A stretch of DNA of 24,138 nucleotides from a virus (IMGVR_UViG_3300025277_000150:1-24138), one strand, 5' to 3'; counted from the first letter of the stretch, positions 3,700 through 20,462 are shown. Notes: a model not told the origin generated them from the sequence alone. Program-made: numbers and translations.

Positions 3700-3713
3700 T
3701 TGGGTAAAGGAGA
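3694..3713 (+). promoter_or_regulatory. Putative phage RNAP promoter, variant B (GAATAATTGGGTAAAGGAGA)
   Basis: Exact 20-bp match to 24070-24089. Shares the core TTGGGTAA.GGAG with 12992 and 16789. Ends in a T7-like GGAGA. Confidence 0.65.
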
Positions 3714-3720
3714 GGGGGGA

Positions 3721-3817
3721 CCTAGGGACCTAGGTTTATATTATATATATAATATATAACTAGGGTAAACTAAGGACCTAGGAAATCGACTAGGGGTCAC
3801 GAATACACAGCTAGGGA
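3721..3817. repeat. CTAGG short-repeat cluster around an AT-only tract; candidate terminus/packaging/origin region
   Basis: CTAGG at 3722, 3730, 3760, 3778, 3790 and 3811, and CTAAGG at 3770. A/T-only tract at 3735-3759. Confidence 0.6.
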
Positions 3818-3899
3818 GAGATTATAAGAGGACTTTCTTTTCCCCCCGTACCCCCCTTAATTCTTTCGCTATAAAAAGCGATGGGGTACCGAGTGCTAA

Positions 3900-4214
3900 T
3901 TGAAACTAGCCTACTGCCCGTGGAAGGGCTTGCAGGTGGCTGGTGCTCATTATATCCTACCGGATATGGTGGGCATTATGGATAATCCTATTATCCAGAC
4001 CTTGCGAGGCATGGTCAAGATAGGAGCATCGTTGTTCCTAATTTGGCTCATGCTTCAAGCAGCTTATGAAAGTATGTCTATGCTTTCACAAGCGGTGGAT
4101 AGTTATGGTGTGGACTTCGCTTACAACGATCACCTCCTTTGGGCGGCGATTTCGTTTGGCGCAGCTTCAATCATAATCTCCATCATGTTTGTTCGCTCCC
4201 TTTATAGGGACTGA
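3900..4214 (+). CDS. Small hypothetical membrane protein (2 predicted TM segments); start uncertain, possibly a downstream ATG
   Basis: Hydrophobic stretches IGASLFLIWLMLQAAY and LLWAAISFGAASIIISIMFV. Confidence 0.5.
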   Translation: MKLAYCPWKGLQVAGAHYILPDMVGIMDNPIIQTLRGMVKIGASLFLIWLMLQAAYESMSMLSQAVDSYGVDFAYNDHLLWAAISFGAASIIISIMFVRSLYRD

Positions 4215-4448
4215 ACAGCATCTGCTGCATGATCCATTGGAGGTTGGTCTGCCAATGGCGGGGTTGTTGAACCCGATACCTTGTCACTCAAGGGGTTCAC
4301 TGTGGCTCATTCACATCTGATGAGGAGTGTCGTTGCTCTCCAGCGACAATCTCTAGGACACTTAGATCCTAAGCATCTACCTGATGATCATTTCGATAAG
4401 AGATAATTCTTATACCCTGAGCTAGCTAGGGTTGTACAGCTAGCAATC

Positions 4449-4817
4449 ATGTTTCCTTTGAAAGGACATGCCATGTCAAATCCAAATCTGTTCAAGCGTT
4501 TGCTTGGGCGCGTTTGGAAAAGTACTGTTGCCGAGCAACAGCCTCATAATGAGTCAGAGGTGAAAGACTCTAGTTTCGACCAACTAAAAGATACTCGTGA
4601 CGTTTGTAGGTTTGATACCTATGACCCAGATCGATCTATTCTTGTTAGTCGGCTTAAGAATTCTATCTTCATCTGGGAAATGCGCAACGGAGCAATCAAC
4701 CGTAGACGCATAAGTTCCAGACTTACATTAGAATTAGATCTATTTGCTAGATCTCCTAAAAATTCTATTAGTAAGGAAGAGCTCGTTGACATGGTTCGTA
4801 AAGAACTTGTTGACTAA
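4449..4817 (+). CDS. Hypothetical early protein; likely start at the MSNPN ATG
   Basis: 122-aa ORF with AAAGGA before the internal ATG, followed by a terminator-like hairpin. Confidence 0.6.
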   Translation: MFPLKGHAMSNPNLFKRLLGRVWKSTVAEQQPHNESEVKDSSFDQLKDTRDVCRFDTYDPDRSILVSRLKNSIFIWEMRNGAINRRRISSRLTLELDLFARSPKNSISKEELVDMVRKELVD

Positions 4818-4827
4818 GAGTGAACCT

Positions 4828-4861
4828 ATGGCACTACAGGCTACCGCTTGTAGTGTCATTT
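4828..4861 (+). terminator. Hairpin (terminator or processing site) after ORF 4449-4817
   Basis: ATGGCACTACAGGC-TACC-GCTTGTAGTGTCAT: 14-bp stem with 2 G-U pairs and a short T run. Confidence 0.5.
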
Positions 4862-4921
4862 GCCCTAGGTTAGTCGGGGCTGCAAAGTGACTAACTGAGT
4901 TCTTCCATAGGAGGCACTGCG

Positions 4922-5125
4922 ATAGCAGAACCTACTAAGAAGTCCGAAGCTATTGAGCGTTTGTTTCGTGAACTCAATGGTGGCGTGGACAGGCGTACTA
5001 TGATCGACTCCGATCTGTGTGCGGTCTGTGCTCAGCCAGCTACTGAGTTCAGCGACGCGCTCAGCCGCAAGGAATACACCATCTCTGGTATGTGTCAAGC
5101 ATGCCAAGATAGTGTGTTCCGCTAG
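4922..5125 (+). CDS. Small CxxC...CxxC zinc-finger protein (67 aa), not in the ORF track
   Basis: Reads AEPTKKSEAIERLFRELNGGVDRRTMIDSDLCAVCAQPATEFSDALSRKEYTISGMCQACQDSVFR*. AGGAGG at 4909-4914 precedes an ATA codon at 4922. Alternative starts are TTG 4961 and ATG 5000. Confidence 0.65.
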   Translation: MAEPTKKSEAIERLFRELNGGVDRRTMIDSDLCAVCAQPATEFSDALSRKEYTISGMCQACQDSVFR

Positions 5126-5445
5126 CGGTTAGCGTCGGAACAACGTCCCTCCGCCTGAGGTTTCGCCCTAGGGAGGGGCTTCATACCTGTGCTCTTCTCT
5201 ATGGAGAGCACGGGTATGAGGTACACGTTGTATCTCGTTCGACCTAAGCATGTCGTTAAAGGGCTTATGCTGATTCTTCCAAGGAAGAGTAGACTCAGGA
5301 GACGAGTCCGACTGAGGGCGTGATTCTCAAGGGGTTTTTAAACCGACAGGTTTTTGATCCTATTGCACTTGTTGTGCATTCCTTTACTCTCTGGGATAAA
5401 GAGAGGAACCCTTTACTACTTTCGAGTAGTATAAAGGAGATAATT

Positions 5446-7239
5446 ATGAAGAAATTCATAGTTATGCTTGAGGCTCTGCCCAAGCGTTATCGGGAACCTC
5501 TGGTCGCCTTCGGGTTGACTAAGTTCATCACCCTTCGTATGCAGCTACGTAGGGACAACCGCAGTATCCATCAGATCATTGATCAGATGCGAGAACAGGT
5601 TGGTCTGTCTAACTTTGGTTACTCTTTGAGTCTTGATGACTTGAAGAAGGCCGAGTTGGCGATTTGCGCTGGTGATGCCGTACTTCCTTCGACTGATCGT
5701 ATGGAGGGGTACGTTTTGGAATCACCGCACGTAGTTGGTCGGGACGATTCAAGGCGATCCGTCATGAGTCGTAACGGTAATGCTCAAGTTCCTAAGCGTG
5801 TGACGAACGCACTTAACTATCTCGGTAGTGTGGGTTTTGATATCCACCCTGAGATGGAGCACCTTCTTCTGGATAATAAGGAGAAGTGGTTGTGCGATCA
5901 GACCAAGCCGTTGTATCTTGAGCTGGAGCGAATTGAGGATTGGGATAAGTTCTTCCTAACCTCCTACCTCGATTGGAGAGGTCGCTTCTACGCAGGTTCT
6001 GGTATCCTGTCTTATCAAGGAGATGCCACTAATCGTGGGTTGGTCTGCTTTGCAGATCCATCTCCTTTCTCCGATAAGCAATGGGATTCCATTCGTACTT
6101 TCCTTCGTGGAGAGTATGGTGTCGCTCCCGATGTTCTCTCGTTTGCTTCTGAGGACTATACTCTTAAGCAACAGGCAGGATGGCTAGCACAAACAGATCG
6201 CACATTTGCCGAGCGATATATTGTGCAGCTCGATACCCACAGTTCTGGTCCACTTATGGTGGCTCTCATGATGAGAGACGAGCGTTTGTTGCGTGTCATC
6301 CTAACTTCAGACTTTTATATGGCGTTCCTTAAGCCGTATATGGAGTCTGGCACATCTTGGGCCAAGAGGCTGAGTGCTATATCTGAGGACGAAACTAGAG
6401 ATCAGGTTGCTAAGCCCTGTGGTATTAACACCATGTATGGGACAGCGGCTGATGCTCTGGCATATTCGTATGCAGGATTGACAATCAACGGTGTTACGCC
6501 TGAGATGTCTATCCTTGATTCTGGCAGCAAAAGTGATCCTAAGCCCGGTTTGGTGTCACTCCTTGAAACTGGAGTGGTTCTTGAATCGAATCTATCTTGG
6601 GAGATCCAACCCTGTCTTCGTCCTTACTTGATGAGTCTGTCCGTTTCTGAACGGTTACGACAGCTCTGCTACCTCGCAAGAGATATGCAGAACGCACTCT
6701 TCAGTGAGTTTCCCTCCATTAGGGTTTATCTCAACACACTCTCTGGTGCTGCTAATAGCTGGTGGAAGAATACGCAAACTTCTTTCAGTTTCCAGCACCC
6801 TCTTGATAAGAATATCATCATCAAGCCTTTCCCGCACAAGCGTACTGATGTGCCTGTAAAGGATTATATTGATATTCGTGTCCTTTCCAAACGGCTCCGT
6901 AGGAACTTGTGTCCAATGGAGTTTGGTCGAGGTCGAGTCTCTGCGTGTGCGCCTTGCTTCACACACATGATTGATGCCGTGATCGTGACCCTTGTGGTTA
7001 ACGAGTGCGAGCGAATGGATATTCCTATCGCTCCTATACACGACTCCTTCGGTGTGCCGATAGCTTATGTTGATGTTGTTAAAGACATCTTCAAGCAAGT
7101 CGTGATCTGGATGTTCACTGAGAATGATTATCTAGGTGACTTCTGCAAGGCTCATGACAAGACCCTCCCTGAGCGGTCTAGTCTTTCCGAGTTTGACATT
7201 GAAAGTCTGCTCGATGAGCTTCCATCCTGTATAGGGTGA
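5446..7239 (+). CDS. Divergent, compact single-subunit (T7-family) DNA-dependent RNA polymerase, RNAP-1 (about 597 aa)
   Basis: Motifs LDWRGRFY..LSYQG, motif A VQLDTHSSG, motif B R....KPCGINTMYG (Kx7YG), APCFTHMIDA and motif C IHDSFG, all in the T7 order. Start placed at ATG 5446 behind AAGGAG. Confidence 0.88.
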   Translation: MKKFIVMLEALPKRYREPLVAFGLTKFITLRMQLRRDNRSIHQIIDQMREQVGLSNFGYSLSLDDLKKAELAICAGDAVLPSTDRMEGYVLESPHVVGRDDSRRSVMSRNGNAQVPKRVTNALNYLGSVGFDIHPEMEHLLLDNKEKWLCDQTKPLYLELERIEDWDKFFLTSYLDWRGRFYAGSGILSYQGDATNRGLVCFADPSPFSDKQWDSIRTFLRGEYGVAPDVLSFASEDYTLKQQAGWLAQTDRTFAERYIVQLDTHSSGPLMVALMMRDERLLRVILTSDFYMAFLKPYMESGTSWAKRLSAISEDETRDQVAKPCGINTMYGTAADALAYSYAGLTINGVTPEMSILDSGSKSDPKPGLVSLLETGVVLESNLSWEIQPCLRPYLMSLSVSERLRQLCYLARDMQNALFSEFPSIRVYLNTLSGAANSWWKNTQTSFSFQHPLDKNIIIKPFPHKRTDVPVKDYIDIRVLSKRLRRNLCPMEFGRGRVSACAPCFTHMIDAVIVTLVVNECERMDIPIAPIHDSFGVPIAYVDVVKDIFKQVVIWMFTENDYLGDFCKAHDKTLPERSSLSEFDIESLLDELPSCIG

Positions 7240-7244
7240 AGCCC

Positions 7245-7280
7245 AGCCCTCTCTACCTTAGCGGGTAGGGAGGTGCTTTT
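7245..7280 (+). terminator. Rho-independent terminator-like hairpin after RNAP-1
   Basis: CCTCTCTACCT-TAGC-GGGTAGGGAGG (11 bp, 2 G-U) followed by TGCTTTT. Confidence 0.6.
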
Positions 7281-7330
7281 GCTCACAGAACGTCTGTGAG
7301 TGTCTTTGTCCCTTTTCTTAGGAGGTTGCT

Positions 7331-7777
7331 ATGAAAAGCAACAAATCAATCCTTCTTAAAAGTCAAGAAGGATATTCAATGGTGTGCTTCACTATCAAGC
7401 CATCCTCGAACATGGTAACGGTTACCAAGACGCGAAAGCCCTTGGTTACCATCCCATTGTTTGATCTGGCTAGCCGTGTGAAGGAGGAACTCTCCCTTGG
7501 TTTCAAGATTGAGGAAGTTCCGTCTAGTCTGCGGCACTTTGAGGCTGACACCATTAACTACCAGTACGATATCGAGGGTATGGTAACGATGTGGGCTAAT
7601 ATAGAAGAGATTCTATGTAATTCTCTCATATCTTCCTATACTCTTGGGGTCAAGGGTGGTGACTTTGGGTTAGCTAAGAAAGCTTTCTTTGATACTTTCA
7701 ATGCACATCACAAAGGCTCTAAGACTCTTCGTATTCGTAGTGGATTAGCTGACGCTCGCTATACGCGGATCAGTTGA
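7331..7777 (+). CDS. Hypothetical protein (148 aa) directly downstream of RNAP-1
   Basis: Strong RBS AGGAGG before ATG 7331; no motif recognised. Confidence 0.7.
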   Translation: MKSNKSILLKSQEGYSMVCFTIKPSSNMVTVTKTRKPLVTIPLFDLASRVKEELSLGFKIEEVPSSLRHFEADTINYQYDIEGMVTMWANIEEILCNSLISSYTLGVKGGDFGLAKKAFFDTFNAHHKGSKTLRIRSGLADARYTRIS

Positions 7778-7821
7778 TCTCAGGGGCTTACACCTCTTAC
7801 CAGAGGGTAGGTCCTTTCCAG

Positions 7822-8016
7822 TCTCGCCTTCGGCGGGAACAACCTTCGGTTTCAACCTTCGGTTCAACCTTCGGTTCAACCCTTCGTACTACCGGAACTT
7901 CGTACCTGATTCCCTTCGGGCTCCATTCTCCGGCCCTTCGTGCCTCTCAGGCTTCGCCTCAGGGCTTTCAGCCCCTCGGAGGTCCTTCGGACCCCCCTAG
8001 GAACGCTTCGCTTAGG
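7822..8016. repeat. Array of about 12 TTC-triloop mini-hairpin/CTTCG units (GAA loops on the minus strand), including 3 near-tandem AACCTTCGGTT
   Basis: TCTCGCC-TTC-GGCGGGA 7822; AACC-TTC-GGTT 7841, 7854, 7866; CCC-TTC-GGG 7912; AGGC-TTC-GCCT 7949; GGGCT-TTC-AGCCC 7962; GGTCC-TTC-GGACC 7981; GC-TTC-GC 8005; imperfect copies at about 7881, 7894 and 7932. Confidence 0.85.
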
Positions 8017-8286
8017 AACGATTCTCTGGTCAGGAGCGGGGACCCCCGCGTTTATGGGAACCCCTGCTTTTTTCCCATCAACCTTGCGCCGTCCACCGGA
8101 GCTGTTGGACATCCAACCATCTTTGGTAAGTCCAAGGTCAGCTCCTCGTGTACGGCTATGTGAAGCGAAGAGGGAGATGTTATGGCATATTAGTGCTAAA
8201 ATCTTAAGGAATTACTCCAAAGCGTAATGCGGCTTAAGATTGATCAGTCCACCGACGCGAGGCTGACTTAACATCTCCTCTCTTCG

Positions 8287-8342
8287 GGGATCAGCTCTCT
8301 ATTGTGGCTCGATATAGCAGGGAACAGTAGAGAGCCGATCCC
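8287..8342 (+). promoter_or_regulatory. Long hairpin, candidate RNase III-type processing site or regulatory stem
   Basis: GGGATCAGCTCTCTATTGT / ACAGTAGAGAGCCGATCCC: 19-bp stem with one G-U and one mismatch, upstream of the 8393 gene. Confidence 0.4.
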
Positions 8343-8392
8343 TGCAGAGATTTAAATTCATTTAGCTTTAACCGATCTAAGGAGGATCAATC

Positions 8393-8617
8393 ATGACTCA
8401 AATCGTCATAGAAATCTACCACCCATACTCCGTTGCTGTTCAATGCGATGGTGACTGGGACTGTTATAACTGCCTAACGGAGGCAGCTGAAGTAGCAAAG
8501 GGCTACATGATGGAGCACCCAGATGCCTCCATCGAAATCGTGAACTCATTTGCCACGAACGAGTGGCAACAACGAAAGTGGCGGCGAAGGCTCGCCAGAG
8601 AGGAAGTCATATCATGA
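8393..8617 (+). CDS. Hypothetical early protein (74 aa)
   Basis: Strong RBS TAAGGAGG; ATGA overlap with the next gene. Confidence 0.75.
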   Translation: MTQIVIEIYHPYSVAVQCDGDWDCYNCLTEAAEVAKGYMMEHPDASIEIVNSFATNEWQQRKWRRRLAREEVIS

Positions 8618-8874
8618 CTCAACTAGACAAGTTCCGTAATGCGGAACAATACAAGGACACGATTCTTCGTGGAATCGCGCTCAACCCCAAGGCAGGAACT
8701 GCCCGTGGCAATGCCAAGGAAGTCTTGTCTGAACGAGGTGTAACCCTCGAAAGCGTAGTCGAGAAGGACTACAGTACTCTGGACGAAGGACAGCTGGAAA
8801 ACATCATCAGCATGGAACATTCCAGAGAAGCAACGAAGGCTGCTGCTCAAACTGAGCTTGACAGTCGAAACTAA
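8614..8874 (+). CDS. Hypothetical early protein (MTQLDKF..., 86 aa)
   Basis: ATG 8614 coupled to the upstream stop (ATGA); followed by a terminator. Confidence 0.7.
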   Translation: MTQLDKFRNAEQYKDTILRGIALNPKAGTARGNAKEVLSERGVTLESVVEKDYSTLDEGQLENIISMEHSREATKAAAQTELDSRN

Positions 8875-8889
8875 AGAAGGCTAAGAGCG

Positions 8890-8919
8890 GAGGGGTGAAA
8901 TTCCCCTCTTTTCTTTTTT
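8890..8919 (+). terminator. Rho-independent terminator
   Basis: GAGGGG-TGAAATT-CCCCTC followed by TTTTCTTTTTT. Confidence 0.8.
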
Positions 8920-8934
8920 CTCGAATATAAATAG

Positions 8935-9400
8935 GGCAAACACTCTACGCTAGAGGAAGTAACTAGCGTAGGGTTTCTCCAAAGGATACTCAGGGTTAAT
9001 CTACTGAGGGAGACTAATAACATCCTGCCTAGACGAGAGCGTAGACCTTATAGGTCGTGGTAATCGTTGCACTCAAATCCTAGTGATTGTTTAGGCAAAA
9101 TCAGGAGTGTATGGTCGTAGTCTAGACCATAGCGTAGAGCTTAGGCTGTGTACGCTGAAGTGTCCGTTAAAGTGCGGAAAGTTATCGTTTTCGAGGAGGA
9201 ACTCCTTCAAAATGATAATAGAACTGCTATTGGGTACTACAGGTAGATTCTAGAGTCCCCCAATAGTGAGAACCACATAGATTTTTTTAAGAAAAGTGGT
9301 GTTAACTTAAGACCGTTCACGGGGAGTAGTAGTAAGACTCGAAGGATCCTAAATGGTATGATAAGAACCGTACCGAGGCTACCCTACTACTGCTCCCCAA
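8935..9400 (+). ncRNA. Candidate structured non-coding RNA/leader (series of hairpins; no ORF of 60 aa or more in the track)
   Basis: CTACGCTAG/CTAGCGTAG, GACCT/AGGTC, TATGGTC/GACCATA, AGCGTA/TACGCT, CTATTGGG/CCCAATAG and GGGGAGTAGTAGTA (9321-9334)/TACTACTGCTCCCC (9385-9398). Confidence 0.35.
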
Positions 9401-9505
9401 CAAACTACAGGAGAAAATTGTGTATGATATGAATCAAATATACTGGATGAGGATTATCATTATACTATGTATTAATCACACAGTCTATTGTTAGGAGGCA
9501 CAAAC

Positions 9506-9691
9506 ATGAGTAAGAAGTACGGAGTCTGGGTAACTGGAAAGCATAACGTAAAAGGATGGCTCATAGATGATGATGGCTACTGTACTTATGACACCCTAAG
9601 AGAAGCTAACAAGGATGCTAATGAATTTAGCAACGCCTTCAGGGGAAGAGTAACAAAATACGAAGGAAGAAAGTTTAAGAAACCATCTTGA
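9506..9691 (+). CDS. Hypothetical early protein (MSKKYGVW..., 61 aa)
   Basis: AGGAGG RBS before ATG 9506. Confidence 0.7.
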   Translation: MSKKYGVWVTGKHNVKGWLIDDDGYCTYDTLREANKDANEFSNAFRGRVTKYEGRKFKKPS

Positions 9692-9715
9692 CATTCTTGA
9701 AATCTATGGTATAAT
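9688..9715 (+). promoter_or_regulatory. Host sigma70-type promoter
   Basis: TTGACA (9688-9693), 16-nt spacer, TATAAT (9710-9715), with extended -10 TG. Confidence 0.8.
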
Positions 9716-9737
9716 GATACTATGAAAGGAAAATACC

Positions 9738-9866
9738 ATGTTTGATCCTGACATTGATGAGGATGATGGAGAGATGATTGACTGGGATACTCTGTTACCC
9801 GAATGGCTTTATGATAATCATGGAATTTCTTGGAACATAGAGGAGGATTGTGATGACAACAGTTAA
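9738..9866 (+). CDS. Very acidic 42-aa peptide (not in the ORF track)
   Basis: AAAGGA RBS; MFDPDIDEDDGEMIDWDTLLPEWLYDNHGISWNIEEDCDDNS*; first ORF after the 9688 promoter. Confidence 0.55.
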   Translation: MFDPDIDEDDGEMIDWDTLLPEWLYDNHGISWNIEEDCDDNS

Positions 9867-10131
9867 AGAGCATATAGAGAATCTTAATAAATACAATCCC
9901 GAAGATCATGTGTGTCTAACAATATGGACGCGGGAAGATATAATATGGAGAATAGATCAGCTAGTAGGCAACGTAGAGTTTCATGACGAGGATCTTGACT
10001 GGATACTAGAACAGATGGAACATAATCATGACGCTAACTATGGTATCAGTTGGGATACCATAGACTGGTGGATTGATATAGTAGCTGAAGAGAAAAGGGA
10101 ACTAGAAAAACGGGAGAAAACCAATGCCTAA
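9850..10131 (+). CDS. Acidic hypothetical protein, paralog of 10861-11163
   Basis: GGAGG RBS; shares MTT.KE.IE.L, C...W..ED and NHDA..GI.W..I with 10861-11163. Confidence 0.75.
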   Translation: MMTTVKEHIENLNKYNPEDHVCLTIWTREDIIWRIDQLVGNVEFHDEDLDWILEQMEHNHDANYGISWDTIDWWIDIVAEEKRELEKREKTNA

Positions 10132-10603
10132 CTGGTGTCAAAACTTTGTGGATATAACTGTCTGGGGAAAAGATGATGAGGAGATTGCGAGAGAAATCTT
10201 TGACCTTTTCTATGATAATTCCAATGGTGAGGATGAAGTAACTTTTGAAAAGGTATACCCTACGCCAGATGACCTAAGTAGTAAACAAGAATATGACTGG
10301 CACATAAACCACTGGGGAACCAAGTGGGATGCAGCGTCTTCACACATAGAACTCGACGGTGGCTACGTAGAGATGCGGATTGAAACTGCTTGGAGTCCAC
10401 CTGAAGGTGTCTACTGGGCGTTCATGAAGTGGCTAAAGGACAATGGCTATGAAGATAATGTCGATGTCGAATGGTTCTATAAAGAAAGAGGAATGAGATT
10501 ATCTGGCTGGTGTGGAGATAACACAATAGCTGAAGACTATGGTATAGTATATGATGCCCATAATTGGGAAGCTAGTATACCTGAAGAAAACAGGATAAGA
10601 TAA
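10124..10603 (+). CDS. DUF1281/YubB-like (ferredoxin-like fold) protein
   Basis: Characteristic MPNWC.N start and W.INHWGTKWDA and ETAWSPP motifs, recognised from memory of the family. Confidence 0.75.
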   Translation: MPNWCQNFVDITVWGKDDEEIAREIFDLFYDNSNGEDEVTFEKVYPTPDDLSSKQEYDWHINHWGTKWDAASSHIELDGGYVEMRIETAWSPPEGVYWAFMKWLKDNGYEDNVDVEWFYKERGMRLSGWCGDNTIAEDYGIVYDAHNWEASIPEENRIR

Positions 10604-10654
10604 CTAAAGAAATGTCGCATCAAGACATGGAAAAATAATAAGGAGGTACGGTTC

Positions 10655-10861
10655 GTGTATAATTATAAGATTACATTTGAAGAGTATTATGAAGACTATA
10701 ATAGTTTTGATGATTGTCTCAAAGCCTTTCGGATAATGCTTAATGACTTATCAAATGATAAAGATCAGATTCCACTCTACTTTAATTTTGATGAGTATGA
10801 TAAAGAAGAGGAAGCTCTTCATGAGCACGGATATATAAATCGGAAAGGACAGGAACTCTGA
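10655..10861 (+). CDS. Acidic hypothetical protein (68 aa)
   Basis: TAAGGAGG RBS, GTG start; C-terminal EEEALHEHGY shared with the next gene. Confidence 0.7.
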   Translation: MYNYKITFEEYYEDYNSFDDCLKAFRIMLNDLSNDKDQIPLYFNFDEYDKEEEALHEHGYINRKGQEL

Positions 10862-11126
10862 TGACTACTGCAAAAGAATGGATCGAGCGTTTAACAAATG
10901 AATATGATGGTGATGAGACGATTTGTGTGGTAGTGTGGAGTGCTGAGGATGTGGATACATTACTAGGCGATAGGGCTATGGAAGTTTCTCGAATCGAAAT
11001 AGATCATATGCTATCATCTATAGAACAAAACCACGATGCCAGCTCAGGTATTACATGGCAAGATATCGAGTATCGTCTTGATGATATCCTTGAGGAGGAA
11101 GAGGAAGCTCTTCATGAGCACGGATA
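10805..11126 (+). repeat. 29-bp exact direct repeat (10805-10833 and 11098-11126)
   Basis: GAAGAGGAAGCTCTTCATGAGCACGGATA occurs twice, each followed shortly by AAGGACAGGA. Confidence 0.9.
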
Positions 11127-11163
11127 CAATACTAGAAAAGAACAAGAAGGACAGGAGTTATAA
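10861..11163 (+). CDS. Acidic hypothetical protein, paralog of 9850-10131
   Basis: TGATG coupling; motif similarity as above. Confidence 0.75.
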   Translation: MTTAKEWIERLTNEYDGDETICVVVWSAEDVDTLLGDRAMEVSRIEIDHMLSSIEQNHDASSGITWQDIEYRLDDILEEEEEALHEHGYNTRKEQEGQEL

Positions 11164-11339
11164 TGAAACCCGGTGAAACTATCTATGAAGTATGTATTAG
11201 TGGGTTTGAAAATCAAGATTCCGCTACAGAATTTATGTGTTTTATTGCAAATGAATATGGAATAGCACTTAATAATATAGAATTTAAAGCTCGAACCCCT
11301 GTGATTTGGGAGGATTGTGATGTACAATCTAAAGAATGA
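11163..11339 (+). CDS. Hypothetical protein (58 aa, MKPGETIYEV...), not in the ORF track
   Basis: TAATG coupling, AGGAG RBS, fills the gap. Confidence 0.6.
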   Translation: MKPGETIYEVCISGFENQDSATEFMCFIANEYGIALNNIEFKARTPVIWEDCDVQSKE

Positions 11340-11451
11340 TCCTTGGTATAAACTTCATGTTTATTCAGAATTACTGTTGACATGTGCCATACGGTGTGGT
11401 ATAATAGTCAGCATTGGCTATCTTATATGGAGATACTACAATGCAGGTTGA
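11320..11451 (+). CDS. Small hydrophobic peptide (43 aa), not in the ORF track
   Basis: GGAGG RBS; MYNLKNDPWYKLHVYSELLLTCAIRCGIIVSIGYLIWRYYNAG*; overlaps a promoter. Confidence 0.4.
   Translation: MYNLKNDPWYKLHVYSELLLTCAIRCGIIVSIGYLIWRYYNAG
11377..11405 (+). promoter_or_regulatory. Host sigma70-type promoter (perfect consensus)
   Basis: TTGACA (11377-11382), 17 nt, TATAAT (11400-11405), with TG extension. Confidence 0.85.
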
Positions 11452-11516
11452 AGAAAACCACGTTCCACATGGATGTTTAGATGATTTTATGTGTTTTAAA
11501 AGTTGCGAGGAAATAT

Positions 11517-11681
11517 ATGAAGTGGGCAATATGGAACCACACGACGAAGAAATATTTGAAAATGAATGGTCAAACCGTAACCTATGGATCGAAAGACCTA
11601 GCTGTTTCTGAGCAAAGGAACTTAGGTCCTACTTTTGAGGTAGAAAAATATAGAAAGAAACGGGATAGAAACAATGAATAA
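11517..11681 (+). CDS. Hypothetical basic protein (MKWAIWNH..., 54 aa)
   Basis: GAGG RBS before ATG 11517; overlaps the next start. A competing frame at 11441-11611 is also possible. Confidence 0.5.
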   Translation: MKWAIWNHTTKKYLKMNGQTVTYGSKDLAVSEQRNLGPTFEVEKYRKKRDRNNE

Positions 11682-11913
11682 TTATGAGGTAATATGCTAC
11701 GAGTTAGCATCAAATTTAGTGACGGAGGGAGTTGTTGAAGATTGTGCGGTAGGAAATATAGGAAAACACCAATGGTTGCTTGATAGTAACGAATGGTTTC
11801 CTCTTCCTGTAATTGCTGAAAGCCTATATGAATCTCTTCTGGAAGATAGGTGTGTATTTAATTTATCTAGTGAGACAATCCATTTACTTAAGGAGTATTT
11901 GAATGAGTCATGA
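11674..11913 (+). CDS. Hypothetical acidic protein (79 aa)
   Basis: Tightly packed ORF overlapping both neighbours by a few bases. Confidence 0.65.
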   Translation: MNNYEVICYELASNLVTEGVVEDCAVGNIGKHQWLLDSNEWFPLPVIAESLYESLLEDRCVFNLSSETIHLLKEYLNES

Positions 11914-12925
11914 AATGTATAGCACAGATACTGCTATGTACGCTAAGACAAAAGCTTGGCATGGTCTTGGAACTGTTGTCGAAGACTACCCTAATGTTAA
12001 AGAAGCTCTGAAATTAAGTGGACTTGACTGGGAAGTACTACAAAGCGATTATCTATACGCTGAAGTAGAGGGTGATACCTACATTGCTGACGGTTATGTA
12101 GCTAACATCCGAAGCGATACCAATGAAGTACTTGGTGTAGTAAGCAAAGACTACCAGCCAGTACAGAATCGAGAACTGTTTGACATAGCTGAAGCAGCAG
12201 CTGGTCAACACTGCAAGGTTGAAACTGCTGGCTCCCTAAAGGGAGGAAGAAATGTTTACTTACTATTGAAGGCTGACTCGTTCGCCGTAGGCGAAGATGA
12301 GATCCAACCATACTTCGGTCTGTTCGATGGTAAGGATGGAAGCATGTCCACCTGTGGATTGAACACAGGAGTTCGTGTTGTATGTAGCAACACAATGGAG
12401 TATGCTATGAGTGGTGCTATACACAAGGTTACTCTTCGTCATCGAGGCAATACAATTGACGATGTATATGACCAAATGTGTGATGCAATCACAAACTTTA
12501 AGGAAACTGGTAAGATATTCCGAGAGAAGGTAGATCATATTGCTACCTATGCTCATTGGAATGAAGACAGGATTCAAAAATTCTTCAAAGAATGCTATGT
12601 TAATATCATTGACCCTAGCATTAAGAAGGAAAAGGATGAAGTCAAGAAAGAAAAGTATTCTATTAAGATGGGTACTAGTATCATGAAGATGCAGGCAAAG
12701 ATGCAAGCAGAACTAGAACTTAATCTTAATGTTTCAACTGGATGGTTGGCTGCAAACGCTGTGACTAACTACATTCAGAAAAAACAAGGAGAGCGTGGTC
12801 GCAAGACTAGTACAGAATCTCGTATCCAAAGCAACCTTATTGGTGCTGGAGCCACACAAAGTTCCAAGGTTATGAGGACTGCACTTAATTGGAGTAGCAT
12901 CAGCGATTCGCTTCCTGCTAACTGA
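11903..12925 (+). CDS. DUF932 family (phage/plasmid-like protein, TIGR03299-type)
   Basis: AWHGLG, LDWEV, LGVVSKDYQPVQN, ETAGSLKGG and VRVVCSNT motifs; TAAGGAG RBS. Confidence 0.85.
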   Translation: MSHEMYSTDTAMYAKTKAWHGLGTVVEDYPNVKEALKLSGLDWEVLQSDYLYAEVEGDTYIADGYVANIRSDTNEVLGVVSKDYQPVQNRELFDIAEAAAGQHCKVETAGSLKGGRNVYLLLKADSFAVGEDEIQPYFGLFDGKDGSMSTCGLNTGVRVVCSNTMEYAMSGAIHKVTLRHRGNTIDDVYDQMCDAITNFKETGKIFREKVDHIATYAHWNEDRIQKFFKECYVNIIDPSIKKEKDEVKKEKYSIKMGTSIMKMQAKMQAELELNLNVSTGWLAANAVTNYIQKKQGERGRKTSTESRIQSNLIGAGATQSSKVMRTALNWSSISDSLPAN

Positions 12926-12935
12926 TCCCCTCTTA

Positions 12936-12982
12936 AACTGGAGATCCTAGGTTTAATTATCTAGGATCTCCAGTTATTATTT
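12936..12982 (+). terminator. Strong hairpin closing the early region (putative terminator)
   Basis: AACTGGAGATCCTAG (12936-12950) / CTAGGATCTCCAGTT (12961-12975): perfect 15-bp stem followed by ATTATTT. Confidence 0.7.
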
Positions 12983-12991
12983 CCATCTCCC

Positions 12992-13016
12992 AATAATTGG
13001 GTAATGGAGTAACACT
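12992..13016 (+). promoter_or_regulatory. Putative phage RNAP promoter, variant A (AATAATTGGGTAATGGAGTAACACT)
   Basis: 24 of 25 bases identical to 16789-16813; intergenic, just upstream of the RNAP-2 RBS. Confidence 0.75.
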
Positions 13017-13038
13017 CCATATGCCACAAGGAGAATAT

Positions 13039-15486
13039 ATGATAAAATGGAATGAGTTATCTCCTGAGATACAGGAACAAAGGCTATCACTACAGTCTGC
13101 TCTTGAGGAACAGATGCTTTATGATGGTAGTAATAAATACTGGGATGAATATTCCAGAGCCTGTGATGAGGGTATACCTGAACAGCAGTTACTAGACTCT
13201 GTAGTTTTTCAGCTCGCTCCTGTCTATCAAGAATGGATAGATAATATATCTAAAAATAGAAAGACACCTGACTGGGTTCATCCCCTGTTAACTCTAGGTG
13301 CTGCTAAGATGGCTGACCTAACTGTTAGGTGTGTCATTAGAATGTGGCTCAAAGCCAGCATGTTTGGGTTTGGAAGAGATGATATCAAGAGTACGCCCCC
13401 TCTTGCACAGCATGTAGCAAGAACAATATCCAAGGAAGCTATTCATATCATCGCCTACCAGACGGCAAAGGAAACTTTCAAGGACGATTGGAGAAAGCAA
13501 TCCAAGTTCATTAAGAACTGGACAGAGAAAAGATGTATTGCTTTCACAAAGAAAATGCTACAGATTCCCCGCATGACCTTGAAACAAAGAGATGACTTCG
13601 GACACCACATGATTAGGATTGCTGAGCTGTCCTCTGTCATCCATACATTCAGGGATAAGTATCCTCACGGAAAGAACCAATGGAGAAACAAACTATTCGT
13701 CACACTTGATGACAGTATCCTAAAAGATATACACAATAAGCACAAGTTCCTAGAAAATACGACATTATTGTATAGACCTATGGTATGTCCACCTGTGGAT
13801 CATACACTGGAACGAAGCGGAGGGTATCTCCACCACTGGATCAGGAAAGAAGTGGTCCATAGATACAGCTCAGATTATATTACTGAAGAAAGAAAGATTA
13901 ATCAACAATACTCTGAGCCTAGTCAGAAGGTTCTTGACGCAACCAATGCTATGCAAAGAACAGAGTGGACTATTAACACCAGAGTTTTTGATGTTATGAA
14001 TAGCTTGTTCAAGAACAACACAAGACTATGTAATCTTCCTGCCTATTCTTTCGATGCCTTCTCCTTTGGAGATGAGTATCCTAAAGATAGTGGTAAGCAG
14101 GAGCAAGCAATCTGGTGTCAACGCAGAGAAGAAGCGTGGTCTGACTGGTTCAAGGAAGAACAAAAGAGAGGACGGATGTTGGTAAGACTACAGCTTGCTA
14201 TTAATCTAACTCTAAATGGATTCTTTTATATGCCCATGACTCTGGACTTCAGAGGCAGGGGATATACTACCTGTGAACTACTTAGTTGTCAAGGTTCTGA
14301 CTTTGATAGAGGCTTGATAATGTTTGCGAACGCTGTACCACAGACAGAAAGAGGAAGATACTGGATGAAGATCCATATAGCTAACCTCTTTGATATTGAC
14401 AAAGTTAGTTTCAGTGACAGAGTTAAATGGTTTGATGATAATCAAGAAATGTTAAAGAGAATTAATGAAGACCCATACCAGAACAGAGAATGGATAGATG
14501 ATGCGGTCAAGAAAAACAAATCATTCCAAAGAATAGCAGCTGTCTTTGACTACTTCAGAAAAGATGGCATGACTCAGGTTCCTGTCCAAATGGACGGTGC
14601 TTGTAATGGAAGCCAACACTGGGCTGCTATCATGAGAGATCAGGATCTTGCCAAGCTTGTAAATATTATACCGAATGAAGTTCCCCAAGATCTTTATCAG
14701 TATGTAGCAAACAAAAGCACTGAACATTTAAATGATAACAAAGAAAACCCTTGGTATAAAAAGTTTTTAGAATACTGGAAAGGAAATCTTGACAGAAAAA
14801 TTACGAAACGCAGTACAATGTGTGATGCCTACGGGCTCACGTTCTATGGCATTCAGAAGTACATGAAACTTGAGGGTCATGTGGACTGGGTTCCTCATGA
14901 AACACAAGCAGGAGCAATCGTAGAGCTTGCAAGAGCTGTTCAAGCTGGTCTTGGTTCTGCTCTTGAGTCTGCCAATCATGGAAAAGAATATCTTAAAGAT
15001 ATAACTAATATGATATCTACTATGGGACATCACTTAACATATACTGTACCAAGTGGATTCAAGGTAGTGCATAACTATACCAAGATCCGAAAGAGGAGAA
15101 GCTTAGCTGCTCTCTTTAATAATAAAGAGCTTATATTTTGGGAGGATGCTGGAGATCTTGATGCGAAAAAAGCAGAGCAAGGTATTCCACCAAATTATAT
15201 TCACTCTTTAGATGCAAGTCATTTGGTTTGCACTGTGTTTATACTGTATAATATGGGTATCAATTCTTTCAGTATGATACACGATTCATATGGATGTCAC
15301 GCCCCGTTTGTGGATGACATGATAAAAATAACGAAGGAGCAATTTTATGAAATGCATCAAGTCAATCTTCTCGAAGAGCTTAAGAACCAGATCGAAGAAA
15401 GATACAGAATTAGACTACCCAACCCCCCAGTCACAGGACAGCTTAGAATCAAGTCAGTTCTGGAATCGGATTATTTCTTCTCCTGA
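13039..15486 (+). CDS. Canonical T7-like single-subunit DNA-dependent RNA polymerase, RNAP-2 (about 815 aa)
   Basis: DFRGRGY, motif A QMDGACNGSQH, motif B RKITKRSTMCDAYG, PPNYIHSLDA, motif C IHDSYG, C-terminal YFFS; AAGGAG RBS before ATG 13039. Confidence 0.97.
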   Translation: MIKWNELSPEIQEQRLSLQSALEEQMLYDGSNKYWDEYSRACDEGIPEQQLLDSVVFQLAPVYQEWIDNISKNRKTPDWVHPLLTLGAAKMADLTVRCVIRMWLKASMFGFGRDDIKSTPPLAQHVARTISKEAIHIIAYQTAKETFKDDWRKQSKFIKNWTEKRCIAFTKKMLQIPRMTLKQRDDFGHHMIRIAELSSVIHTFRDKYPHGKNQWRNKLFVTLDDSILKDIHNKHKFLENTTLLYRPMVCPPVDHTLERSGGYLHHWIRKEVVHRYSSDYITEERKINQQYSEPSQKVLDATNAMQRTEWTINTRVFDVMNSLFKNNTRLCNLPAYSFDAFSFGDEYPKDSGKQEQAIWCQRREEAWSDWFKEEQKRGRMLVRLQLAINLTLNGFFYMPMTLDFRGRGYTTCELLSCQGSDFDRGLIMFANAVPQTERGRYWMKIHIANLFDIDKVSFSDRVKWFDDNQEMLKRINEDPYQNREWIDDAVKKNKSFQRIAAVFDYFRKDGMTQVPVQMDGACNGSQHWAAIMRDQDLAKLVNIIPNEVPQDLYQYVANKSTEHLNDNKENPWYKKFLEYWKGNLDRKITKRSTMCDAYGLTFYGIQKYMKLEGHVDWVPHETQAGAIVELARAVQAGLGSALESANHGKEYLKDITNMISTMGHHLTYTVPSGFKVVHNYTKIRKRRSLAALFNNKELIFWEDAGDLDAKKAEQGIPPNYIHSLDASHLVCTVFILYNMGINSFSMIHDSYGCHAPFVDDMIKITKEQFYEMHQVNLLEELKNQIEERYRIRLPNPPVTGQLRIKSVLESDYFFS

Positions 15487-15721
15487 TGTTCGATATATTC
15501 TATGGAAAGATGCTCAAAGTTTCGGTGGACCTGAATGGGTTGATCATACTGAAGCCTATGAATGGGCGCACCGTACTCCCCCAACAATGAAGACAGTTGG
15601 GTTTGTATTAAAAGAAACAGAAGAGTGGATAAGTATAACAGATTCCGTTGGTCCTAACGAATGTGGTGGCGTAACCACTATTCCAAAGGTCATGATTTTA
15701 TCTATGGAGAAAATAAGATGA
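15347..15721 (+). CDS. Hypothetical phage protein (W.DA...W...T.G..IP type), overlapping the RNAP-2 3' end
   Basis: AAGGAG at 15334-15339, 7 nt before ATG 15347; the C-terminal half looks like a typical small beta-rich phage protein. Confidence 0.6.
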   Translation: MKCIKSIFSKSLRTRSKKDTELDYPTPQSQDSLESSQFWNRIISSPDVRYILWKDAQSFGGPEWVDHTEAYEWAHRTPPTMKTVGFVLKETEEWISITDSVGPNECGGVTTIPKVMILSMEKIR

Positions 15722-15963
15722 CTCTCATTCCGATCAATTCAGAAGGAGATATGGAGCTGGCTATTAAGGAGACGATTCATATAGCCAGACATAGAGGAAA
15801 GGCAATAGTAGACCTAGCATTTACTACAGAGTTTTTAGCTCAAGTATTTTTATGGAATCTAAATTCTGCTATAGCTCAAACAGGAGTTTCTAGAAATAAA
15901 GATGTAGAATTAAACATCATAATTGTAGGAGACGGTGATGCTGCCGAAGAAATACACGAATAA
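15718..15963 (+). CDS. Hypothetical protein (MTLIPINS..., 81 aa)
   Basis: GGAG RBS and ATGA coupling. Confidence 0.7.
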   Translation: MTLIPINSEGDMELAIKETIHIARHRGKAIVDLAFTTEFLAQVFLWNLNSAIAQTGVSRNKDVELNIIIVGDGDAAEEIHE

Positions 15964-16114
15964 GTATCAAGAGATGCATGATAAAGGTGAGTTCAATGTT
16001 TGGGCTCCTATTCCACAAAAAGATGGCAGCTTCTTGCCTCCACTCGCACAGCAATGGAAAGAAGAGTGGTCACGTAGATGTAAAGCCATGAATAAAGGAA
16101 AGAAAGATGTCTAG
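15938..16114 (+). CDS. Hypothetical protein (58 aa, MLPKKYTNKY...), not in the ORF track
   Basis: AGGAG RBS; fills the gap up to the phosphoesterase gene. Confidence 0.55.
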   Translation: MLPKKYTNKYQEMHDKGEFNVWAPIPQKDGSFLPPLAQQWKEEWSRRCKAMNKGKKDV

Positions 16115-16793
16115 AGTTCTTATTATAGGTGATACTCATTGCCCTGCTATGAAGAAGGGTTATGTTGATTTCCTTAATGACATGAAGAATCTATGGAACA
16201 CAGATAAAACCGTACACATCGGAGATGTGGTTGATTGGGCAAGCATTAGCTTCCACGAAAAGCTCCCAGAGTTTCCTTCACCACATGATGAGTTCCATAA
16301 AGCTATGGAACAAGTACAACTATTATACAAAGCATTCCCGAAAGTTACAGTGTTGACTGGTAATCACGATGACCTACCAAAGAGAAAGATTAGTACTCTG
16401 ACTTTACCAACTCAATGTATTAAAGAATATTCTAACCTTTGGAATACTCCTAAGTGGGAGTGGAAGCCAAGGTTTTCTAGGATTAGTATTGATGGAGTAG
16501 CGTACAGTCATGGTGACAGCGGTAAGGGAGGTAAGTTTTCCTCCTTGAATAATGCACATGATAATTTCTGTTCTTGGGTTCAAGGACACCAGCACTCTAT
16601 TGCTGGAGTAAACTATTATGCCAACCTAACCAAAAGAATTTTTGCGCTTTCTACTGGATGTGGGGTTGACCACGAAAATCTTAGTATGTATTATGGTAAG
16701 AGATTCAACTCCAAGCCCATCGTGGGATGTGGAATTGTGTTGGATGGAGAGCATGGATTCTTTGAGCCTATGCCCTTTGAAGATTACGAATAG
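16107..16793 (+). CDS. Calcineurin-like metallophosphoesterase
   Basis: GDTH, GDVVD, GNHD, SHG and GHQH motifs. Confidence 0.9.
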   Translation: MSRVLIIGDTHCPAMKKGYVDFLNDMKNLWNTDKTVHIGDVVDWASISFHEKLPEFPSPHDEFHKAMEQVQLLYKAFPKVTVLTGNHDDLPKRKISTLTLPTQCIKEYSNLWNTPKWEWKPRFSRISIDGVAYSHGDSGKGGKFSSLNNAHDNFCSWVQGHQHSIAGVNYYANLTKRIFALSTGCGVDHENLSMYYGKRFNSKPIVGCGIVLDGEHGFFEPMPFEDYE

Positions 16794-16813
16794 TTGGGTA
16801 ATGGAGTAACACT
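16789..16813 (+). promoter_or_regulatory. Putative phage RNAP promoter, variant A
   Basis: AATAGTTGGGTAATGGAGTAACACT; at a gene boundary upstream of the SSB/replication genes. Confidence 0.75.
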
Positions 16814-16848
16814 TCATACTCACTAGATAAAAAAGAAAGGAGAAACCG

Positions 16849-17088
16849 TTGGACACAAAAACCCTCAAGAACGAGTACCGAGATGGACTCGAAAAGGAAG
16901 AAGTAATGGCAGAGAAACCAGCTGTTGAAGTTGAAAATGTTGTACGATATCTTAATGATGTTGCCGCAGCCCTAAGCCATGTTGTTAGCGGTGTTCAAAA
17001 GACAATCAGTCAATTGAATCACCAAGTATACACAATTAAACCAAATAATGAAATCACAGATCAAGAAGGAGAAAATAATGATGACTAA
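16849..17088 (+). CDS. Hypothetical coiled-coil protein (79 aa)
   Basis: AAGGAG RBS, TTG start. Confidence 0.6.
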   Translation: MDTKTLKNEYRDGLEKEEVMAEKPAVEVENVVRYLNDVAAALSHVVSGVQKTISQLNHQVYTIKPNNEITDQEGENNDD

Positions 17089-17599
17089 GATTTCCCAACT
17101 ATACACTGATACTTTAGACGTACAGTGGGCGCACCTACACAAGCCAGACACTAAGTTTGGTAACCCCGGCAATCATAATATTACCGTGGTTGTTGATGAG
17201 GTACTTCAAACTAACCTTGATAATCTCATGAAAGAGACAGGTGCTAAGAAGATTAATGGTATGCGAGAAGTTGAAGGTGTAACAACCATCAAGATCAAGT
17301 CCACCATTTATACTAAAGATGGTACAAATACTTTCCCTTGTAAAGATGCAGCTGCTGAAGATACAGAAGCCGTACCTTTTGGCGGTGACAAAGTTCGTCT
17401 CCGTCTCGCCCCGATGGTAATTTCAAGGGACAATTCACTTAGTTTGTTTCTCAATGGTTGTCAGATCATAGAGAAGAACGAACAATCGAACACTGGAGGC
17501 TTCACTCCAACCGATGGATACGATGGCTCAGACTACAAAGCACCTGTAGCTACAACTCCTGAGGTTCCTGAAGTTTCCGATGACGATGTTCCATTCTGA
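17078..17599 (+). CDS. Single-stranded DNA-binding protein, T7 gp2.5-like
   Basis: WAHL.KPDTKF start, L.LNG.QIIE, acidic tail ending DDDVPF; position before resolvase and primase; AAGGAG RBS. Confidence 0.85.
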   Translation: MMTKISQLYTDTLDVQWAHLHKPDTKFGNPGNHNITVVVDEVLQTNLDNLMKETGAKKINGMREVEGVTTIKIKSTIYTKDGTNTFPCKDAAAEDTEAVPFGGDKVRLRLAPMVISRDNSLSLFLNGCQIIEKNEQSNTGGFTPTDGYDGSDYKAPVATTPEVPEVSDDDVPF

Positions 17600-17979
17600 T
17601 GGAACTTGAATGGACTTTTCCTATTAGTCCAGTCGCTGCAAGTAGGCCCCGTGTCTCAAGATACGGGGCTTACTTCACTGGACCCTATAAAAAATTCAGG
17701 GAAGAAGGTTCACAAGTTATATATGAAGTGTTAGGTGCAGACTTTGATTTAATTGATCAACCTCTCATGGTAGATTTAGAATGCTATATAAAACAACCTA
17801 AATCTACAAAGCTAGATTGTCCCAAGGGAGACATAGATAATTTTATCAAAGGAATTTTTGACCTATTAAATGGTAAGCTATGGACAGATGATGGTATAAT
17901 CCGTTCTGTCCATGCTACCAAAGAATGGGCTCCCAAAGGAGAAGATGGTTATTTCACGCTAGGAATTAGAAATGTATGA
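17599..17979 (+). CDS. rusA: RusA-family Holliday junction resolvase
   Basis: RPR, KGDIDNFIK..FDLLNG.LW.DD signature. Confidence 0.85.
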   Translation: MELEWTFPISPVAASRPRVSRYGAYFTGPYKKFREEGSQVIYEVLGADFDLIDQPLMVDLECYIKQPKSTKLDCPKGDIDNFIKGIFDLLNGKLWTDDGIIRSVHATKEWAPKGEDGYFTLGIRNV

Positions 17980-18328: not shown

Positions 18329-18349
18329 GGAGAAGGAGAATATTATATA

Positions 18350-20387: not shown

Positions 20388-20390
20388 GTA

Positions 20391-20419
20391 TTGACTGGAA
20401 AGAAGTTGTGTGGTATAAT
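20391..20419 (+). promoter_or_regulatory. Host sigma70-type promoter upstream of the DNA polymerase
   Basis: TTGACT (20391-20396), 17 nt, TATAAT (20414-20419), with TG extension. Confidence 0.8.
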
Positions 20420-20462
20420 AAGTATTGGAGTAGTCTTCAAGATCAGGACGAAGGAGATGATA

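Follow-up and report, generated by a model that had tools for sequence, protein, structure and literature searches.

Phage T7 has one RNA polymerase (RNAP) and a short terminal repeat. The uncultured virus described here is represented by a stretch of 24,138 nt (IMGVR_UViG_3300025277_000150:1-24138, termed the window), and the sequencing runs that contain this DNA carry the label marine metagenome; no RNA run was among those listed, which has no bearing on expression. The window carries two intact T7-family RNAP genes, encoding RNAP-1 (597 amino acids, aa) and RNAP-2 (815 aa), which delimit the feature under study at positions 5446–15486. An additional RNAP of about 650 aa has been described in 23 AG-10.1 and 17 AG-14 genomes of marine Autographiviridae (Du et al. 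2025, PMC12361551), and because that paper describes the extra enzyme in AG-10.1 the presence of two RNAPs is itself already published. In AG-10.1 the extra gene lies among small unknown genes, upstream of the typical RNAP and downstream of the gene for a protein of 3274–5566 aa; the authors suggest horizontal transfer, and they report that just four of the giant proteins have an RNA_pol domain, without linking it to the extra RNAP (PMC12361551). The accessible text of the paper leaves unaddressed the catalytic residues, selection, the missing N-terminal domain and a terminal repeat (0 occurrences of ‘terminal repeat’). Further afield, RNAPII of phage N4 is described as truncated in its N-terminal domain and thumb and as requiring the cofactor gp2 (PMC4496689). 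The literature searched, with subscription journals outside its scope, yielded no paper that addresses function, a location in a terminal repeat or a rearrangement of motifs.

To the published account of AG-10.1 are added here the minimal architecture of the extra enzyme, the selection acting on it, its location in a probable repeat, its pairing with a domain of the giant protein and an apparent rearrangement of motifs in that domain. The best reading of the whole is that an N4-like early transcription module has been grafted onto a T7-like genome. The phage falls within AG-10.1 by its giant upstream protein, its extra RNAP of about 650 aa (a 639-aa frame) and its place in the canonical-RNAP tree, where it lies in a clade of 32 together with five AG-10.1 genomes (G006, G008, G009, G019 and G026; support 0.986); this placement uses the canonical RNAP alone, the published tree seven genes. 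Four of the five genomes were found with RNAP-2 and one, G008, with the RNAP-1 profile, and G006 holds a short-RNAP homolog of the same family. The near-identical contig behind L085, a contig of the same phage, measures 67,673 bp, within the range tabulated for AG-10.1 (47–137 kb, mostly 60–72 kb, in 48 rows; PMC12361551).

The two polymerase genes are as follows.

5446–7239, + strand: RNAP-1, single-chain T7-family RNA polymerase, 597 aa from the ATG at 5446, ribosome-binding site aaggag, stop at 7239
13039–15486, + strand: RNAP-2, canonical full-length T7-like RNA polymerase, 815 aa, ATG at 13039

This layout is genuine, recurrent in relatives and not chimeric, because the metagenome contig L083 spans both genes (window 4223–17236 at 99.98% identity) and the IMG/VR relative G001 has both RNAPs in the same order, with identities of 56% for RNAP-1 and 79% for RNAP-2.

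RNAP-1, whose open frame is 639 aa long when not counted from the ATG, carries the T7-family motifs in order: D176-W-R-G-R180, the motif A aspartate D263, motif B K323-x7-Y331, H507-x2-D510 and motif C IHD533 (H532-D533). D176/R180, D263 and D533 align to T7 D421/R425, D537 and D812. The protein matches PF00940 (E 1.8e-10, 40.7 bits at a cut-off of 22) and phrog_414 (E 2.7e-26), and its family profile finds mitochondrial RNAP (E 5e-35), T7 RNAP (E 7e-25) and N4 gp16 (E 4e-18) in the Protein Data Bank (PDB). Among 20 same-position homologs, 14–57% identical to RNAP-1, the only invariant columns are R180 (the arginine of DxRGR), the two catalytic aspartates D263 and D533, and K323 and Y331 of motif B. 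The full-library profile search listed 149 other representatives; in the 94 that measure 480–705 aa, about 12 of which fall among other RNAP lineages in the tree, R180 and D263 are kept in all 94, K323 in 93, D533 in 92 and Y331 in 90. Short RNAPs span dozens of 50%-identity clusters, and no close relative of RNAP-1 was found in GenBank phages (0 of 390 matches cover 80%). The ratio of non-synonymous to synonymous substitution (dN/dS) is 0.11–0.19 in six of seven short-RNAP pairs, the seventh being saturated; it is 0.147 between RNAP-1 and its G001 homolog, with dS near saturation, and 0.06–0.12 in three pairs of canonical RNAPs. Because the invariant positions are catalytic residues only and dN/dS is 0.11–0.19, RNAP-1 is predicted to be catalytically active; the dN/dS values show that it is under purifying selection. 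An AlphaFold model of RNAP-1 built from a two-sequence alignment had a predicted local distance difference test score (pLDDT) of 38.7.

The RNAP-1 family profile aligns to T7 RNAP from RNAP-1 residue 90, equivalent to T7 271, through the end (E 4.5e-50), and T7 residues 1–270 are replaced by 89 residues. Ahead of DxRGR stand 175 residues in RNAP-1, 235 in N4 gp15, 402 in RNAP-2 and 420 in T7. The thumb is short, with much of its T7 counterpart deleted, and the specificity-loop region is retained. The AT-rich loop and the intercalating hairpin, at T7 RNAP positions 93–101 and 230–245, lie within the residues absent from RNAP-1. As judged by alignment, RNAP-1 is without the T7-type N-terminal promoter-binding domain. 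By analogy, it may work like N4 RNAPII, though it is no member of the gp15+gp16 type. No homologs of gp1 or gp2 (Drc) were identified; the open reading frames (ORFs) next to RNAP-1 belong to no named PHROG or Pfam family, and no direct comparison was made.

RNAP-2 matches PF00940 at E 9e-84 and has D403, D519, K590, Y598 and D749 in place. BLASTP between the two polymerases aligns just 43 aa at 40% identity (E 1e-6) and 59 aa at 31% (E 0.008), and the tree path from RNAP-1 to RNAP-2 (4.9) is longer than that from RNAP-2 to T7 RNAP (3.4). Compared over 18 genomes, the trees of the short and canonical RNAPs broadly agree (Mantel rho 0.30, p 0.007) but conflict in places, such as G023 against G022, and G008 is a long branch in the canonical tree; the short enzymes evolve about three times faster (tree length 25.5 versus 8.1). 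Because the two trees are broadly congruent, recent transfer is disfavoured, and long co-inheritance of RNAP-1 appears the better account. An earlier note on this DNA had credited both genes with the full ordered motif set and both catalytic aspartates, and had found little common sequence outside the motifs; residue positions, PF00940 matches and the two short BLASTP segments confirm this. Its view that RNAP-1 is no recent duplicate agrees with the tree paths and the purifying selection. Where it left RNAP-1 either separately acquired or long diverged, the broadly congruent trees favour long co-inheritance and make a recent separate acquisition less likely. Of the objections it raised against itself, a chimeric assembly is contradicted by L083, and neutral or broken homologs by the dN/dS values and the kept catalytic residues. 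Its remark that two-RNAP T7-like phages had been reported was correct, as the published AG-10.1 genomes attest (PMC12361551).

The short RNAP is accompanied by a domain of the giant protein. In a set of 26 relatives at ≥90% completeness, the two occur together in 15 of 15 genomes (G001, G006, G007, G008, G019, G022–G026, G046, G070, G071, G078 and G079; in G024 and G046 a contig end truncates the short gene), and both are missing in 11 of 11 (G009, G010, G033, G035, G036, G038, G039, G044, G065, G068 and G072; G010 may lack the relevant stretch). Among 16 records chosen by a DNA element and not by RNAP, ten have a short RNAP and the same ten have the domain; two fragments matched neither. Separately, genomes without the giant domain can hold a different extra RNAP of about 700–722 aa in the same slot: G009 (L015:1420-3519), G021 (L043:1-846), G065 (717 aa) and G066 (722 aa). 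Because the G009 enzyme (about 700 aa) branches near the canonical clade, the slot has been filled at least twice.

Of the giant protein, the window holds the C-terminal part.

1–3699, + strand: C-terminal 1232 aa of the giant protein, the frame being open at the left edge of the window

On contig L085 the protein is at least 2750 aa long, and the downstream flank of the domain profile finds a match there (E 9e-30); the giant proteins of relatives that have the RNAP-like domain occupy frames of 4559–5489 aa (5199 aa in G001, the closest relative). The 2750 aa from L085 contain no cysteine, the giant proteins of relatives contain 0–2 and the N4 virion RNAP (vRNAP) contains 0. The protein is probably an ejection (injected) protein, and its middle part, which lies beyond the window, carries an RNAP-like domain in relatives. 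In three of five genomes scanned, giant proteins match phrog_414 (E 1e-4 to 2e-5), and those of relatives carry a motif B-like R-x3-K-x7-Y. Nine columns are invariant among 14 giant domains, and another eight sequences, of which two are near-identical, keep all nine; on realignment of the 22, eight invariant columns were obtained (P25, D63, D155, D208, Y210, R271, K275 and Y283). The segment D155 to Y283 aligns with motifs A and B of T7 (E 9e-5). The fingers predicted for the domain can be superposed on T7 RNAP 567–689 (Z 5.3 over 94 aa, root-mean-square deviation 3.1) and on human mitochondrial RNAP (Z 5.0). The giant-domain profile found no RNAP among PDB sequences, a word-indexed search of longer proteins also found none, and the ESM Atlas returned just leads below 0.9 to RNA_pol and N4 vRNAP clusters. 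These comparisons make a third RNAP-like domain probable for this phage, encoded in the giant gene. The giant proteins of this phage (L085:2-8251, residues 788–917) and of G001 (L158) also contain an RNase_H_2-like domain (E about 2–4e-6). In other phages (L104, L106, L107 and L112) a 1096-aa ORF has a motif B-like segment and a weak match to the giant-domain profile (E about 9e-5); these ORFs are possible free-standing virion RNAPs.

The order of motifs in the giant domain appears unusual. Downstream of motif B the giant proteins have no conserved motif C, and H-x-x-D matches there are scattered and unconserved; D63, which precedes motif A by 92 residues, lies in an ‘S-x-I-H-D’-like motif. 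A 55-residue window was slid along the short-RNAP profile and compared with the profile of the 22 giant sequences; in giant coordinates, matches fell at 56–80 (motif C, E 0.006–0.011), 153–167 (motif A, E 0.01), 266–297 (motif B, E 3e-6), 507–531 (thumb-base helix, E 3e-4) and 549–588 (DxRGR, E 0.002). Ten of 11 control windows without such motifs gave E≥0.2, and one gave 0.086. A T7-based profile returned the same order, more weakly. The giant domain could therefore run C-A-B-thumb-DxRGR, with the flanking blocks of the T7 order thumb-DxRGR-A-B-C swapped; this is about an even call, because the E-values are pairwise and the structure left the palm unresolved.

The RNAP-1 gene sits inside a block of distinct composition.

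3760–9050, no strand assigned: GC-rich block with approximate edges, probably a long direct terminal repeat (about 5.3 kb)
3782–3805, + strand: edge element AATCGACTAGGGG(G)TC, conserved, marking the left border of the GC-rich block

The block has a GC content of 45–49%, versus 32–41% elsewhere in the window, and a GC content at third codon positions (GC3) of 0.49 versus 0.27–0.38. Contig depth within it is 1.6–2.8 times that of the flanks in five runs, with 1.8–1.9 implied in two more; these depths are contig means and carry no copy number, possible source runs are included, and an eighth run (X14) was too patchy and was excluded. Three independent assemblies break near the right edge (L085 ends at 8934, L084 ends at 9080 and L002 starts at 9103). 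Single-path contigs cross both edges, and because no alternative flank was found at either edge among those listed, a shared-module origin of the doubled depth is disfavoured. A rise in GC is present in nearly all of 19 genomes examined, and in 11 of the 19 one copy of the AATCGACTAGGGG(G)TC element follows the giant gene; its 16-letter form occurs in 25 IMG/VR contigs, five of them AG-10.1 table entries. The element is probably a genome-end or packaging signal. For a long direct terminal repeat carrying RNAP-1 there is thus a strong hint, not proof, because contig depth gives no copy number, the runs are from one year and possible source runs are among them. To the left of the edge element, at 3730–3775, an alternating AT-rich tract lies between CCTAGG-like repeats, and assemblies often break there.

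Around the block, two kinds of promoter-like sequence were located.

3695–3712, + strand: copy 1 of the phage-type promoter-like motif, just before the probable repeat
12992–13009, + strand: copy 2 of the motif, directly upstream of RNAP-2
16789 and 24071: further copies from the motif scan, within the replication module
9688–9715, + strand: sigma-70-type promoter, perfect 12/12, extended TG, just right of the block
11377–11405, + strand: second sigma-70-type promoter, perfect 12/12, TG

The phage-type motif, AATA[AG]TTGGGTAA[AT]GGAG, has four exact copies in the window (3695, 12992, 16789 and 24071) and one with three mismatches, against 0.11 expected, and copies stand at matching places in G001. 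It is assigned to RNAP-2 as a promoter-like motif by position only; the place of the copy at 3695 resembles that of the T7 right-end promoter. Inside the GC-rich block, no + strand sigma-70 site scores above 9/12. The block continues after RNAP-1 with these features.

7248–7302, + strand: two terminator-like hairpins, directly after RNAP-1
7331–7777, + strand: 148-aa ORF without a known family, immediately following RNAP-1
7825–7993, − strand: six C-GAA-G tri-loop hairpins with 4–5-bp stems, clustered on the template strand
8035–8158, + strand: conserved block, taken as noncoding, 77% identical to G001; a short ORF (7774–8163) overlaps it
8614–8874, + strand: small conserved ORF, found downstream of the short RNAP in several relatives

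The 148-aa ORF is 31% identical to the same-position ORF of G001 (E 8e-19); it has no Pfam or PHROG match and no homolog in the other loci examined, and is a candidate only for an RNAP-1 cofactor. An ORF of 155–192 aa also follows the extra RNAP in L098, L054, L034, L039, L163, L165 and L015, with no detectable similarity to the 148-aa ORF; such ORFs are possible fast-evolving cofactors. The block contains six C-GAA-G hairpins, against a mean of 0.3 (maximum 3) in shuffled sequence and one in the other 18.8 kb, and three occur at the same place in G001. The ORF at 8614–8874 has 17 locus matches at E≤0.01, including G001, G006, G007 and G016. No Rfam match was found anywhere in the window.

Set against N4, these features suggest, with slightly less than even confidence on our part, that RNAP-1 is an early enzyme dependent on a cofactor or on DNA structure, like N4 RNAPII, forming a module with a probable virion-borne polymerase in the giant protein. 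The anatomy (motifs, missing N-terminal part and gene order), the selection and the co-occurrence are observations, and the succession of events is modelled on N4. The GC-rich block would form the left end, be duplicated as a terminal repeat and be the first DNA into the cell. The injected giant-protein polymerase would transcribe it, since the block is without a consensus host promoter, and RNAP-1 would then extend early transcription and DNA entry, aided by a cofactor or structured DNA. Host RNAP at the promoters at 9688 and 11377, followed by RNAP-2 with its TTGGGTAA-type promoters, would take over the replication and late genes. Extended to AG-10.1 as a group, this becomes a three-polymerase programme, in which an injected, rearranged giant polymerase and a co-inherited, minimal, repeat-encoded enzyme of about 600 aa join a canonical T7-like enzyme; in that full form the proposal is possible though on balance doubtful. 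If it is true, the T7/mitochondrial RNAP family would have in the giant domain its first naturally scrambled member, as far as the searches made could show. The earlier note had given RNAP-1 a job of its own, such as very early transcription or DNA entry, and such a role remains the best guess; its two-polymerase account overlooked that the giant gene probably encodes a third RNAP-like domain and that RNAP-1 probably lies inside a long terminal repeat.

Several observations weigh against this proposal. IMG/VR did not yield the segment of this phage's own giant gene that would bear the motifs. The AlphaFold model of the giant domain is poor (mean pLDDT 52), being confident only in parts and leaving the palm unmodelled; a Foldseek search with it gave no match at E≤0.001, and the Z of 5.3 for the fingers is within the range of common arrangements. 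Six of the 11 genomes that lack both the short RNAP and the giant domain form one clade and, with G010 possibly missing the relevant stretch, the co-occurrence rests on few independent contrasts. All eight depth runs date from 2017 and may be one campaign, and their depths are contig means. The RNAP-2-type motif at 3695 could drive late expression of RNAP-1, and two perfect host promoters lie upstream of RNAP-2, so that RNAP-1 is not obviously needed for making RNAP-2. No second repeated promoter family was found in the early region. N4 has hairpin promoters with 3-nt loops at its left end, whereas the N4-like hairpins here lie downstream of RNAP-1 and have short stems (4–5 bp); G006 has none, nor does the early region of G007.

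Late expression from 3695 is the starting point of an alternative that we consider unlikely, in which RNAP-1 is a dedicated priming or end-processing polymerase, making short RNAs at origin-like hairpins or transcribing across the repeat during its duplication or packaging. The hairpin cluster and the conserved block come right after the RNAP-1 gene, an RNAP-2-type motif immediately precedes the GC-rich block in the window and in G001, an enzyme without a promoter-binding domain would suit DNA that is melted or structured, and RNAP-2 is already provided with host promoters. Such a function leaves the strict co-occurrence with the giant domain unexplained, however; the phage already has a T7-type primase-helicase, and the hairpin cluster is not universal.

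The co-occurrence would follow directly if RNAP-1 and the giant domain were one machine, RNAP-1 being the working enzyme and the scrambled domain a scaffold or motor that recruits it during DNA entry. The abnormal motif order of the giant domain, with no conserved motif C downstream of motif B, is in keeping with this. Yet the domain retains invariant D, D, R, K and Y of its own in 22 of 22 sequences, and RNAP-1 has 12 cysteines whereas the giant proteins are cysteine-free, which makes a single machine rather improbable. A comparably low probability is given to RNAP-1 as a horizontally acquired accessory polymerase, serving another gene set from its own double-stranded promoters and unlinked to the giant protein, in line with the suggestion of Du et al. 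(2025). The distinct GC and codon bias of the block (GC3 as above), the large divergence with some tree incongruence (G023 against G022), the retained specificity-loop region, and the different extra RNAP in the same slot of G009, with the 717- and 722-aa frames of G065 and G066, all point that way. Against it, the GC rise is shared by nearly all genomes examined, the short and canonical trees are broadly congruent, the region of the T7 AT-rich loop and intercalating hairpin is absent, and here too the pairing with the giant domain goes unexplained. That RNAP-1 is a decaying relic or an assembly artefact is largely refuted and very improbable: its roughly threefold faster evolution and the altered DxRGR or H-x-x-D of some homologs are outweighed by invariant catalytic residues, dN/dS <0.2, intact frames and contigs that span both genes.

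The remainder of the window has the following further genes.

11903–12925, + strand: DUF932 protein, a frequent upstream neighbour of the canonical RNAP
16107–24100, + strand: T7-like replication module, comprising phosphoesterase, gp2.5-like single-stranded DNA-binding protein (SSB), RusA, deoxyribosyltransferase, primase-helicase, DNA polymerase A, deoxynucleoside monophosphate (dNMP) kinase and exonuclease

The SSB match is that of the ORF at 17048–17599 to phrog_112 (E 3.8e-7); AG-10.1 is reported to be without an SSB in the text accessible (PMC12361551), whereas the gp2.5-like match here may be an overlooked remote homolog. The early ORFs at 9850–10131 and 10861–11163 are paralogs (both phrog_10258), and a 58-nt imperfect duplication (10798–10855 and 11091–11148) joins the ends of two small ORFs. 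Stretches of 30–38 nt at 4859–4896, 5207–5236 and 8922–8951 are also found, differently flanked, in other contigs from the same runs, and are possibly regulatory elements common to related phages. In the clade without a short RNAP, an early ORF of 279–294 aa (L061:4629-5465, L066:5220-6098 and L068:3735-4616) has, by eye, kinase-like motifs DLHxxN...DFG that recall T7 gp0.7.

With these results, a one-paragraph genomic remark on an extra RNAP in AG-10.1 becomes a testable model. At about 600 aa, the short RNAPs are among the smallest single-chain T7-family members, smaller than N4 RNAPII; they might reveal how an enzyme with no promoter-binding domain initiates transcription, and are also candidate compact tools for transcription. 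Should the giant protein contain a working rearranged polymerase, a globally distributed marine phage group would form a bridge between T7-like and N4-like infection strategies, and the right-hand polymerase fold would have an unexpected plasticity.

In comparison with described systems, RNAP-2, the replication module and the host promoters that open the early region follow the plan of T7 (gp1) and typical Autographiviridae, whereas the two certain RNAPs and one probable one, and the probable 5.3-kb gene-bearing repeat, set this phage apart from T7. Kilobase-scale terminal redundancy is also described for SPO1 and Twort-like phages, at about 8 kb; those are unrelated families, and the accessible text does not mention a polymerase gene within the repeat (PMC3896407). 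The closer parallels are with N4. As described, N4 RNAPII (gp15+gp16) is, like RNAP-1, a minimal T7-like enzyme with a truncated N-terminal domain and thumb, encoded, in this phage probably, near the first-entering end; it is heterodimeric and 673 aa in size, whereas RNAP-1 is one chain of 597 aa that lies outside the N4 gp16 branch in the tree. The N4 virion RNAP gp50 is described, like the giant protein here, as giant and cysteine-free with an internal RNAP-like domain, but the giant domain matches it weakly (E 0.19) and seemingly has another motif order. Finally, N4 uses host RNAP late, whereas in this phage a canonical T7-like RNAP is present together with several copies of a phage-type promoter-like motif.

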